Shown here: piece after piece, positions 2,101 to 44,211 of the stretch | How positions within the stretch are numbered: the first letter of the stretch is position 1 | Layout: each line of letters starts with the position of its first letter | IMG/VR virus record: IMGVR_UViG_2917413769_000009 | Span: 1 to 44,211 of that record | Length of the DNA stretch: 44,211 nucleotides | Source: a virus | Taxonomy: Duplodnaviria; Heunggongvirae; Uroviricota; Caudoviricetes | Strand: one strand, 5' to 3' | The notes under the pieces: model-generated | The model's database searches: none | The model's input: only the letters and a program-made list of their open reading frames with translations | Told to the model about the DNA's origin: nothing | Program-made: the position numbers and the translations under genes

Positions 2101-2514
2101 GGTAACACTAAAAAAGTAGTGATTGCACTATCTCTGTTTGACATTGACTAACATTGTCATCGCTTCAATGAAGTACATCGTCTAACCAGGCTGTTTTAGT
2201 TGATAATTGTGACTTTATATCGCTGATTGTTGGTACAAACGGAAAAGGAATGAGACAAAAAATAACACTATTTATTCATCGAATTAATGGTAACCACAAA
2301 TTAATACAGATGCACACCATCCGAACCTAAAGAAAGATAAGCGGAAGGTTTCCTGATAGTGCCGCCAGCACCTGACAATGATCTAGTTAATTCTCACGAC
2401 TAGCGACTACTAGCACTGTCGGCATATAAAGCTCACCAGGGTATGAGGTCAGATGATGGAGAAAAGAGGCTGAGGTGATAGTTGCCGATGATACAATATC
2501 GGCAACGTGCTTTT

Positions 2515-2808
2515 TCACCCACAATTAACTAACCGCCAGACCAGCAGACATGCCACCACCGGCACAGCAAAATCCATCAGGCTTGCCACATCCCAAGCGC
2601 GCGGATCAAAACCGCCCCACCACGGCATATTCATACGCTTGCCATGCCCGAACATTTCAATCCAGCGATATTCTGCCTGGGTGTGTTCACGCGCAATGAA
2701 GAACGTACAACCGGCTATAGCACCGTAAGCCCAGTTTCCGGTAAAAAGACCAATCAGTAACTGCGCAGCCACAGCACAAAGCGCATGAAGGAAAGGTGTT
2801 ATATCCAT
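2515..2808 (-). CDS. small predicted membrane protein (97 aa), last gene of the tail-fibre operon
   Basis: ORF with strong SD (AAGGAGG) 10 nt downstream of the preceding gene. Hydrophobic segments FLHALCAVAAQLLIGLFTG and LMDFAVPVVACLLVWRLV. No recognised family. Confidence 0.5.
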   Translation of the reverse strand: MDITPFLHALCAVAAQLLIGLFTGNWAYGAIAGCTFFIAREHTQAEYRWIEMFGHGKRMNMPWWGGFDPRAWDVASLMDFAVPVVACLLVWRLVNCG

Positions 2809-2818
2809 TACTCCTCCT

Positions 2819-3523
2819 TTATCCGATATCGCTTCGGGAAGTTGATAACAACTTTAATTCTGACTCAAGTTCATCAACTCTTTCAGTCAGTTTCTGGATA
2901 TGGTGAATCAGTGGAACAACCAGACGTTCGTACATTACACCTTCGGCAACAAGGCCATTGCTGGAAATAGCTTCAGGAGCATCATTCTCGTTAGCTGGTC
3001 GCCAGTGTACAAACTGAGGGGCAATTTCTCCTAATTCCTCGGCAATCAACCCGTAGAATCCCCAGTCACGCCTGTCATTTTCGCATTGCGACCTGTACCA
3101 CACAGGGCGCATCTTGAAAATGAGATCGGCGTGCTCTGAATCTATCGTCTCTACTGAATGTTTATAGCGAATAGACGATGTTGACCGCAGTACAGACGAA
3201 ATTGCGGGGTCAGGATTAAGATAAAGGTTTGCCGCCGCTGTAGTCGTGGCCAAATTCCATAAATAAAACGCTTCTCGACCTGTCAGCGGGTAAAAATCAC
3301 CGCCATAACGACCGCTTTCCAGATCGTTCGCTTCCACTTTGTTTTTCAGCTTATTATCAACTTCAGTTTTTGTGTATCTGGTGCTGATATCCTGCTTTGC
3401 ACTGGTCATATCAATCTGAAGCGTTGATACTTTTCCGTTAATTGAGGAAATATCTTCCTTAGTTTTACTGACATCTCCCTTTAGCGTGGTGATATCTCCT
3501 GGAATTACTGTCGATGTAGCCAT
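2819..3523 (-). CDS. tail-fibre-like protein with N-terminal coiled coil and C-terminal intramolecular chaperone (peptidase S74-like) domain
   Basis: 234-aa ORF with SD GAGGAAG. C-terminal segment SIRYKHSVE...GFYGLIAEELGEIAPQFV...YERLVVPLIHHIQKLTERVDELESELKLL follows the pattern of auto-cleaving chaperone domains of tailspikes/fibres (GxIAQE-like motif followed by a coiled coil). Confidence 0.6.
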   Translation of the reverse strand: MATSTVIPGDITTLKGDVSKTKEDISSINGKVSTLQIDMTSAKQDISTRYTKTEVDNKLKNKVEANDLESGRYGGDFYPLTGREAFYLWNLATTTAAANLYLNPDPAISSVLRSTSSIRYKHSVETIDSEHADLIFKMRPVWYRSQCENDRRDWGFYGLIAEELGEIAPQFVHWRPANENDAPEAISSNGLVAEGVMYERLVVPLIHHIQKLTERVDELESELKLLSTSRSDIG

Positions 3524-3532
3524 TTTTCTTCC

Positions 3533-3814
3533 TCACATCCAGCCACGAAGTTGATGCTCAACAGCAACCGCGTATTCATCGAATAATGACGATATTTGCG
3601 AATCATTAATGATGCGCACGTTTACAAAATATCCGTCTTCCTTAACACATACCGGTTCGCCATCTTCAGTCAGTTCTCCGGTTTCTTTGTACACGTTACC
3701 TATCACGTCAATAAGAATATCATCCTGCATCGTCTCGTCGTCATAATAGCCAGTGCTATCCATAAAGGCCGAAAAGTCGGCCCTGTCTGCAAATTTGAGT
3801 GTTAAATCTTTCAT
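3533..3814 (-). CDS. hypothetical acidic protein (93 aa), translationally coupled to stf; possible fibre assembly factor
   Basis: ATG at 3812-3814 overlaps the stf stop (ATGA overlap). Acidic composition, no recognised motif. Confidence 0.5.
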   Translation of the reverse strand: MKDLTLKFADRADFSAFMDSTGYYDDETMQDDILIDVIGNVYKETGELTEDGEPVCVKEDGYFVNVRIINDSQISSLFDEYAVAVEHQLRGWM

Positions 3815-43450: not shown

Positions 43451-43478
43451 TTCGAATTTAAGAACTGAAAGAACACCA

Positions 43479-43501
43479 AGCCGCCTGATGGCGGTTTTTT
43501 A
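43479..43501 (+). terminator. rho-independent terminator
   Basis: CCGCC-TGAT-GGCGG followed by TTTTTTAT. Confidence 0.6.
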
Positions 43502-43514
43502 TTGGAGACAAGAA

Positions 43515-43859
43515 ATGTCAGATTTGGCTATGAAGATTTTGAAATGGCAAACGACTGGCGATGTCGGCATCAGTAGCGCAACTCTTGCCTCAATCGCATG
43601 TGGACTGAAAAAGAATATCTATGGTCATCACTTCGGTGCTCCACATGACGCAGCCGATTTCCGACGATGCGTTGCACTTGTTGAGCAGATTCCAGAAATC
43701 AGAGATTCATTCGACAAGGTTGCAAAGCGCGTTCCGGCATTCAAAGGCATCCTCAACGAATGGGATTCTCTCGTTGCTCTGTTGAAGTCTGAAATGAAGA
43801 TACACGGAAACAAAGCACCAGAGACTTACAGAAGAATCAGAGAACTACGCAAGGACTAA
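43515..43859 (+). CDS. hypothetical protein (114 aa)
   Basis: Start at MSDLAMKILKWQTTGDVG... (ATG 43515, SD GGAG). Confidence 0.6.
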   Translation: MSDLAMKILKWQTTGDVGISSATLASIACGLKKNIYGHHFGAPHDAADFRRCVALVEQIPEIRDSFDKVAKRVPAFKGILNEWDSLVALLKSEMKIHGNKAPETYRRIRELRKD

Positions 43860-43980
43860 CTATGGAATCATACAGCCTCACACTCGATGAGGCCTGACAG
43901 TTTCTCAAGATCGCCAGATCTACCGCAACCGACAATAACCGCCACTGAACGGTTTATTTCTTTATGGAGAAGCCATACAA

Positions 43981-44211
43981 ATGACAATCAATATTCAGCC
44001 GATTCTAATAAACCGCGAGCGTGTTCAGGAGATGCTTGGTGGTATCTCCAGAACTACTTTTTACCGGAAGCGTAAACAGTGGGAGCAATCAGGGACACCA
44101 TTCCCTCGGGAAGTGGAAGAAATCCACCCACCGAAAGGCGGCGCCCTCTTTCGCTACAAGGAAGTTATTCAGTTTTGCAAAGATAAAGGATTGATTTCCG
44201 AACACTCTTGA
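43981..44211 (+). CDS. xis: AlpA/Xis-like DNA-binding protein (putative excisionase)
   Basis: 76 aa; ...RERVQEMLGGISRTTFYRKRKQWEQSG... helix-turn-helix typical of AlpA-family excisionases; at the int-proximal end of the PL operon. Confidence 0.7.
   Translation: MTINIQPILINRERVQEMLGGISRTTFYRKRKQWEQSGTPFPREVEEIHPPKGGALFRYKEVIQFCKDKGLISEHS

Follow-up and report, generated by a model that had tools for sequence, protein, structure and literature searches.

The stretch of DNA analysed here, referred to as the window, is the full 44,211 nucleotides of IMG/VR virus record IMGVR_UViG_2917413769_000009. It very probably consists of the promoter-proximal end of a host thrS gene followed by ~42.2 kb of a 43.6-kb temperate lambdoid prophage that is built from known modules and is probably intact. 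The prophage is an ordinary mosaic lambdoid, a new combination of known modules and not a new kind of element. A single known phage was rejected as its source: in a collection of 50,697 phage records, the highest coverages of the two halves of the window are 57% and 41%, and no record attains 80% for either half. Among 5,426 complete Escherichia coli genomes, a threshold of 80% is reached by a single genome for the first half and by no genome for the second, and the exact prophage is absent from all of them. In E. coli AVS0655 (NZ_CP124498), a prophage located between sbcB and dacD matches 88% of the first half of the window and 51% of the second half.

A preliminary description of this DNA had proposed a mosaic prophage with lambda immunity and Q/nin regions, phage 21 lysis genes, an HK97 head, a lambda tail and Rad52/SSB recombination, joined at the usual recombination joints. 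Gene-by-gene comparison with lambda (NC_001416), HK97 (NC_002167), phage 21 (OL657228), phage 606R7 and the AVS0655 prophage confirms the mosaic: uniform similarity to one phage was not found, and four of the six module labels hold, with those for the head and tail being imprecise. The genes follow the lambdoid order, int-xis, recombination, N, OL, cI, OR, cro, cII, the replication genes O and P, nin, Q, lysis, packaging, head, tail and fibres, with int extending just past the window end. Late genes are on the minus strand and the pL operon is on the plus strand, and the circuit is that of a lambdoid phage, with divergent cI and cro, OR and OL both tripartite, N with nutL and nutR, and Q upstream of the lysis genes. 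The similarity switches, defined by the ends of high-scoring segment pairs, fall at gene or domain boundaries and at the classical places, as had been proposed. One lies 14 bp past the cro stop codon (between cro and nutR), another coincides exactly with the stop codon of cI, and a third is between P and ninB, in intergenic DNA where the lambda and HK97 matches overlap by 32 bp. Others are found 60-115 bp upstream of S, where R and Rz overlap, at the stop codon of TerL and, for the M/L joint, ~20 bp inside the 3' end of M, with further joints at domain boundaries inside J and stf. The modules would come from different, already sequenced lambdoid lineages, joined by the recombination that is standard for lambdoid phages.

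Host, prophage boundaries and integration site

The host is an Escherichia other than E. coli (assembly GCA_004745435.1), in which contig PDIL01000009.1 (locus L009) is 100% identical to window positions 11063-44211 and continues past the window end, also at 100% identity. The window begins with thrS (1..1929, minus strand), encoding an intact 642-amino acid (aa) threonyl-tRNA synthetase (ThrRS) with Pfam domains tRNA-synt_2b, TGS, tRNA_SAD and HGTP_anticodon. Positions 1-1980 are 99.6-99.8% identical to several non-coli Escherichia assemblies, and the nearest species representatives over this region are Escherichia sp. E1V33 (98.5%) and E. whittamii (98.3%); positions 1-2147 have 94.2% nucleotide (nt) identity to K-12. 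E. coli sensu stricto was considered as the host and ruled out, with thrS only 94-96% identical to E. coli versus 98.3-98.5% to E1V33 and E. whittamii.

A 23-bp attR core, ACACGAAAGATCACATACAAAGA, is located at 1958..1980, 29-51 nt upstream of the thrS ATG, where it overlaps the thrS leader hairpin adjoining the Shine-Dalgarno sequence (1951-1971). This core is repeated beside int in the source contig (L009 20494-20516), the attL core at the window-equivalent positions 45558-45580, ~1.4 kb past 44211. Relatives with an empty site (L013, L015) match the window only up to 1980, the source contig resumes the empty-site sequence beyond int, and the host homology of L013 ends exactly at the core on both sides. 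As the duplicated core and the empty-site homology end there, attR is placed at 1958-1980 with phage DNA beginning at ~1981, and not at 2110 as initially described; the element is then ~43.6 kb long.

The int gene (402 aa; window-equivalent 44169-45377, minus strand) has its 3' end in the window, from 44169, and the rest past 44211 in L009. It adjoins a gene on the plus strand (from 43981, within 43981..44211) that encodes a 76-aa Xis/AlpA-like protein. This int/xis pair is very common, with the 76-aa protein present in 9,016 index blocks, and is used by prophages with quite different early regions that are inserted between thrS and arpB in E. coli. The E. coli site is flanked by arpB (ankyrin/Toxin_15), a gene absent from the empty site of the lineage to which the window's host belongs. 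Other prophages at the thrS site carry different morons beside the att arm, exemplified by a P-loop NTPase (L006, E. coli 2452, NZ_CP031833, 8668-10410; L019-L023, 12072-13970). A literature search for thrS with arpB and prophage, or for thrS as an integration site, returned nothing relevant. Neither tRNAs nor Rfam families were found in the window.

Packaging and head

The packaging and head genes, all on the minus strand, have the HK97-like gene set and order. An HNH endonuclease gene (24847-25197; PF01844) is located upstream of the gene for a P27-family TerS (24227-24730; Pfam Terminase_4), and is followed by genes for TerL (22498-24230; Pfam TerL_ATPase and TerL_nuclease), which is split in the window, portal (21063-22304; Phage_portal), an S78 prohead protease (20435-21121; Peptidase_S78) and the major capsid protein (19215-20420; Phage_capsid, PF05065), with no separate scaffold. 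A 60-aa YmfR-like open reading frame (ORF) is also present within 19215..22486. The description of the head as HK97 is therefore apt for Pfam families and gene order, but not for lineage: TerL, portal, protease and capsid protein have only 24%, 32%, 36% and 25% aa identity, respectively, to those of HK97, and there is no HK97 DNA match over 18544-26143. Portal, protease and capsid protein are 99-100% identical to those of phages 606R7 and phi467 and of the AVS0655 prophage. TerS and TerL are 99% identical to AVS0655 and 36-42% identical to 606R7, so that vB_EcoM-606R7, although 95% identical over the stretch from portal to L, has a different terminase. From these homologies, the DNA would enter an HK97-fold head, packaged by a cos/HNH terminase system like that of HK97.

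Tail and fibres

The tail genes, also on the minus strand, are of two origins. The tail completion, gp10-like, head closure and connector proteins (within 12479..18965) are HK97-like, as are the major tail protein (16761-17465), T and G (16073-16761) and the tape measure protein (12813-16032; Pfam Phage_HK97_TLTM). Tube, G/T and H have 48-72% aa identity to HK97, the range for major tail protein, G/T, tape measure and connectors being 48-79%, and there is no lambda match or one of 27% at most. A programmed -1 frameshift that generates a G-T fusion is a conserved feature of tail assembly chaperones. A slippery site, A AAA AAG, is present at 16368-16384 (minus strand), with the stop codon of G immediately after it and the frame of T at -1 to that of G. 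As the A8 run at the end of G is also present in a sister assembly, it is considered genuine.

M (12479-12820) is 40% identical to lambda M. The tail-tip proteins that follow are close to both lambda and phage 21, namely L (11781-12479; 94% to lambda, 94-95% to lambda and 21), K (about 11036-11776; 82% to lambda, 95% to 21), I (10488-11135; 77% to lambda) and J (6945-10427; 83% to lambda, 97% to 21). At the DNA level the tip matches lambda only over 7931-12499 and phage 21 over 6899-12499, and, as the lambda match stops at 7931, the C-terminal receptor part of J is assigned to the 21 type. Within the set V, G/T, H and M-L-K-I-J that defines a lambda-type tail, the lambda/21-like members are L, K, I and J alone (77-97%). 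The lambda tail of the preliminary description is thus limited to the tip, in which J is closest to 21, and does not extend to the tube, chaperones, tape measure or connectors, which are HK97-like. Based on homology, the particle would have an HK97-like tail shaft with a phage 21-type J tip. With the AVS0655 prophage, the element shares all of the late genes between TerS and lom at 95% nt identity (the matching block being 5431-26100), and the tail-tip/shaft joint therefore predates the present element.

Downstream of J is a gene for an outer-membrane moron of the Lom/Ail family (6278..6877), 44% identical to lambda Lom and 96% to the AVS0655 protein, annotated there as Ail/Lom. The 802-aa product of stf (3811-6219; Pfam phage_tail_N and Peptidase_S74) is 60% identical at its N-terminus to lambda orf-401 and 69% identical over the rest to AVS0655; an exact look-up of this protein found it not on record. 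Three further ORFs are located within 2515..6219, a 93-aa ORF in the side tail fibre region (82% to AVS0655), one encoding a 234-aa tail-fibre-domain protein (98% to AVS0655) and one encoding a 97-aa membrane protein (94% to phage 21 CPT_21_24). All these genes are on the minus strand.

Lysis, late control, nin and replication

The holin and endolysin genes are those of phage 21, as described initially. S (27075-27290, minus strand) encodes a 71-aa pinholin 100% identical to S21 (OL657228), a class II holin of the S21-71 form with a dual start and beginning with MKSMDK, and R (26578-27075, minus strand) encodes a 165-aa signal-anchor-release (SAR) endolysin 98% identical to R21, with a Gly/Ala-rich N-terminus. 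The phage 21 assignment does not include Rz (26144-26593, minus strand), which is 96% identical to HK97 Rz and only 56% to that of 21. Lysis would presumably proceed via the phage 21 pinholin and SAR endolysin. Between the lysis and packaging genes is a gene for a KilA-N domain protein (25471..25917, minus strand), 99% identical to the AVS0655 KilA-N protein.

The assignment of Q and nin to lambda is also upheld. Q (27834-28457, minus strand) is 100% identical in aa to lambda Q and is paired with the lambda pR' region, the region with pR'/qut and Q (27348..28457, minus strand) having 95.7% nt identity to lambda 45003-43233. The nin region (28454..31898, minus strand) contains NinI, NinG, NinF, a NinX-family insert, NinE, NinD, NinC and NinB; NinI, NinG, NinC and NinB are 96-98% identical in aa to lambda. 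The NinX-family gene (29896-30255, minus strand), located between ninE and ninF and recognized as Pfam Phage_P22_NinX in L009, accounts for the gap between the two lambda matches (29116-29862 and 30261-31957). Relative to lambda, ninH is precisely deleted (29110-29116), so that NinG abuts NinI, and ren is absent at the P/ninB joint.

The replication genes, together with Rz, are of the HK97 type and, as with an HK97-like cII and an N of a third type, were overlooked in the preliminary description. P, a DnaB-type helicase (31954-33330, minus strand), and O (33327-34148, minus strand) have 100% and 99% aa identity, respectively, to HK97. The cII product (34329-34625, minus strand) has identities of 87% to its HK97 counterpart and 93% to that of AVS0655, and lambda gives no match. 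Replication would be by an HK97/P22-type O with a DnaB-type helicase.

Immunity and antitermination

The immunity region is of the lambda type, in agreement with the label first given to it. Cro (34764-34964, minus strand) is 100% identical in aa to lambda Cro, and CI (35065-35778, plus strand) is 95% identical, differing at 13 of 237 residues, with no differences in the helix-turn-helix (residues 33-52); it differs from HK97 CI at 11 residues. OR1, OR2 and OR3 (34991-35054) match the lambda operators at 17/17, 13/17 and 16/17 positions, respectively, and OL3, OL2 and OL1 (37562-37622) have the lambda spacing with two, one and three mismatches, respectively. The four changes in OR2 (35015-35031) are at positions 9-12, in the central or right half, and include a C to T change at half-site position 6, where all six half-sites of the lambda OR have C. 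The OR2 changes may affect cooperative repression or pRM activation.

It could be argued that this immunity has drifted away from that of lambda, with the CI substitutions (13 relative to lambda, 11 relative to HK97) and the altered OR2 and OL1, the latter with three mismatches, together establishing a new specificity. We consider this rather unlikely, given that Cro and the CI helix-turn-helix are identical to those of lambda, OR1 is unchanged, OR3 and OL2 are each off by one base and the operator spacing is that of lambda. Lambda immunity of the prophage is the likely outcome, and by homology the lysogen would be immune to both lambda and HK97.

The N gene (37814-38086, plus strand; Pfam N_peptide) is not that of lambda. 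Its product has 98% identity to N of AVS0655 and 40% to that of HK97, and lambda N does not match it. The N/nut system is self-consistent, as the boxB hairpins of nutL (37701-37716) and nutR (34710-34725) have the same GAAAA loop. Antitermination would involve this N/nut pair and the lambda Q.

Frameshifts and integrity of the prophage

Several genes are interrupted in the window by single-nucleotide changes in homopolymer runs. TerL is split by a missing C at 22841 (C4 to C3), the tape measure gene by an extra T at 13821 (T6 to T7), and extra A residues are present at 37292 in a cargo gene for a 309-aa protein and at 38610 in ea10 (the A runs changing from A7 to A8 and from A6 to A7). Two intergenic homopolymer runs, at 42090 and 42144, are changed likewise and alter the start of a gene for a protein with an Invasin_D4 domain. 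The same prophage is carried, with no substitutions, by three other assemblies or read-set assemblies, over 15.5 kb (L025), 17.3 kb (L010) and 7.5 kb (L026). TerL is intact (577 aa) in L025 and L026, the tape measure protein is 1070 aa in L025, and the extra A at 38610 is absent from L010 and L012. As the homopolymer indels are absent from sister assemblies that have no substitutions, the frameshifts are probably assembly errors, and the prophage is probably intact.

If the 1-nt deletion at 22841 and the 1-nt insertions at 13821, 37292 and 38610 were real, TerL, the tape measure, the 309-aa gene and ea10 would be frameshifted in a decaying, defective prophage that forms no particles, and the gene calls of the source assembly do indeed omit TerL and the tape measure. 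This appears improbable, as every indel is in a homopolymer, the sister assemblies differ by indels only, with no substitutions over 7.5-17.3 kb, real decay would be expected to add substitutions too, and thrS is intact. Even less credible is a chimera assembled from several prophages of the same genome, since, although repeats common to lambdoid prophages are a frequent cause of broken or mis-joined short-read assemblies and the sister assembly GCA_005781065.1 is broken at 26604/26915, the joints are reproduced at 100% identity in independent assemblies and contigs derived from the Sequence Read Archive (L025, 11062-26604; L010, 26915-44211; L011, 26938-36836; L012, 31222-38824) and the att core is duplicated at both ends.

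Some points do weigh against an intact, lambda-immune prophage. Its inducibility is only putative, and the assignment of the indels as errors is based on the comparison of assemblies, so that they could, perhaps, be real mutations in this strain. Positions 26604-26915 are spanned by the source assembly alone among those compared, and homo-immunity with lambda is predicted with an OR2 that departs from lambda at 4 of 17 positions, one of them the position-6 C.

Relationship to known phages

HK97 shares with the prophage the lambda-type cI, cro and OR, a lambda-type Q, O and the DnaB-type P (99-100% aa), Rz (96%), Abc2 (94%), kil, cIII, the tail shaft and tape measure (48-79%) and the head and packaging gene order with an HNH endonuclease. 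It differs in its head and terminase proteins (only 24-36% identical), J (33%) and N (40%), in having Erf without Rad52/SSB and a lambda-type holin and endolysin without S21/R21, in integrating at the lambda att site and in having gp48/gp49 downstream of cI. The combination of lambda cI/cro, HK97-type packaging and non-Red recombination had been suggested to be informative for prophage evolution, but HK97 itself already has all three. The combination is not new, because the CI proteins of HK97 and lambda differ at 2 residues, the OR of HK97 is nearly the same as in lambda and HK97 encodes Erf.

With lambda, the prophage shares Cro (100%), CI (95%) and the operators, Q (100%) and the pR' region, NinB, NinC, NinG and NinI (96-98%), the ea10 and ral region (96% nt) and, at 92% nt, L, K, I and the N-terminal part of J. 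The lambda head, terminase, tail tube, tape measure, lysis genes, O/P, cII and N are absent, as are Red, rexAB, int and att, and the C-terminal receptor domain of J is not that of lambda. Phage 21 shares S21 (100%), R21 (98%), J (97%), K and L (95%), ea10 (98%), NinG (99%) and the 97-aa membrane ORF (94%), but has a lambda-type head, its own immunity and Q, and Red recombination, tRNAs upstream of S, an integration site in icd and an Rz with only 56% identity. The AVS0655 prophage shares TerS to lom (95% nt), O/P (98%) and the N type, and differs in its repressor (68%), Erf, lambda-type lysis genes, integrase and integration site.

Early-left region and recombination

The region to the left of the immunity genes, on the plus strand, begins with a ral-like ORF (within 38215..39314) and ea10 (38590-967) of the lambda/21 type, the ral/ea10 region (38094-39019) being 96-97% identical in nt to lambda and phage 21. 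These are followed by cIII (39043-39177) and kil (39162-39314) of the HK97 type, in a segment (38981-39561) with 97.8% nt identity to HK97. The Pfam families of the ral-to-kil region are seen in L009.

The recombination genes are adjacent in the pL operon and, as stated in the preliminary description, encode a Rad52-family annealase (39569-40276, plus strand; Pfam Rad52_Rad22, E 5e-26) and SSB (40277-40783, plus strand; Pfam SSB, E 1.6e-36). By its sequence, the annealase is predicted to be a Rad52-superfamily single-strand annealing recombinase with a cognate SSB. They are followed by a gene for the anti-RecBCD protein Abc2 (40797-41090, plus strand), 94% identical in aa to HK97, and no match to lambda exo or bet was found among the window proteins. 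The Rad52-SSB-Abc2 genes are ~96% identical in nt to phages HK75, mEpX2, mEp235 and Huey. These four phages and Sf6 have a module of Rad52-family annealase, SSB and Abc2 in common, although none of the five covers more than 51% of 39400-43900.

Accessory ORFs on the plus strand (41101..43859) include a DUF2737 ORF and ORFs of 136 and 114 aa, and a gene for a phrog_536 regulator is located at 43136-43450 (plus strand). A small ORF downstream of the recombination genes (41665-41823, plus strand) resembles the theta subunit of DNA polymerase III (HolE-like; PHROG and Pfam DNA_pol3_theta). The low-GC ORF at 42155-42799 (plus strand), which is 233 aa in a sister assembly, has an Invasin_D4 (Ig-like) domain, unusual cargo for this position.

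A conserved cassette in the rexAB position

A two-gene cassette (35898-37370, ~40% GC) occupies the rexAB position, directly downstream of cI. The first gene (35898-36443, plus strand) encodes a DUF6932 protein that resembles minimal nucleotidyltransferases and the second (36440-37370, plus strand) a 309-aa protein with a C-terminal oligonucleotide/oligosaccharide-binding (OB) fold that, with the extra A at 37292, reads as 289 aa in the window. The cassette has no DNA match in the phage collection of 50,697 records and none among the five references compared. The DUF6932 family has an invariant GS...DxD pattern, and a confident structure model (predicted local distance difference test score, pLDDT, of 91) gave weak Foldseek matches to minimal nucleotidyltransferases, the best with E 0.039. 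The 309-aa protein is rare, with 31 homologues found. In prophages of Escherichia, Salmonella and Serratia, whose repressors differ, the pair always follows the repressor gene directly. PADLOC returned only a weak match of DUF6932 to the candidate PDC-M63A and no match among its known defence systems for the 309-aa partner. One study (bioRxiv 10.1101/2024.12.20.629700) saw no defence activity of PDC-M63AB against ten phages, and a literature search on DUF6932 found nothing.

The phage att arm and the thrS leader

The prophage sits inside the thrS translational operator, with its core overlapping the hairpin beside the Shine-Dalgarno sequence. Upstream of the core, the phage arm (1981..2147, minus strand) mimics the thrS leader and promoter region of K-12, with 75% identity to the K-12 leader, and is unrelated to the empty-site leader of the host itself. 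It contains an upstream operator-type hairpin at 2004-2047. Two TTGTGTACCAA repeats are present in the arm at 2036-2058, with two inverted copies in the int-side arm (L009 20341-20516), and the K-12 leader keeps degenerate copies; these repeats are probable Int arm sites. As the phage arm replaces everything upstream of the att core, lysogeny exchanges the promoter and upstream operator of an essential gene. A strict scan of the phage arm found no consensus sigma-70 promoter upstream of thrS.

Two unrelated leader types are present upstream of the att core in 80 species representatives of the Enterobacteriaceae, with the switch exactly at the core. Type A is present in K-12, all Enterobacter and Lelliottia, some Citrobacter, Salmonella diarizonae, Atlantibacter and the phage arm, and type B in E. 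whittamii, E. ruysiae, Klebsiella, Raoultella, Kluyvera, most Citrobacter and the host of the window. The type A hairpin has a conserved UUGUUGG loop, and across 22 sequences, the phage copy among them, 8 of its 17 pairs show compensatory changes. An upstream hairpin that binds ThrRS has been described for the K-12 thrS mRNA (PMC3858243), and the type A hairpin would, by its position, correspond to it. Tentatively, phages of this integrase family may repeatedly exchange the thrS promoter and upstream operator, the upstream operator of K-12 then being an attachment arm of phage origin that was domesticated; alternatively, phages may have taken up the leader of a host. Neither K-12 nor Enterobacter was found to have a second att core or a remnant of a native leader, either of which would have shown the ancestral leader type.

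Implications

The prophage is one more example of the well-documented modular evolution of lambdoid phages. The practical gain is a corrected module map, which shows that a label like lambda tail or HK97 head should be checked at the protein level, together with the true boundaries and integration site of the element and a caution that homopolymer errors in this assembly mimic pseudogenes. The cassette, conserved and uncharacterized and expressed from the rexAB position, is a candidate for a function that protects the lysogen. This cassette and the observations at thrS, which point to a family of prophages that rewires the regulatory leader of an essential gene, could matter more than the mosaic.

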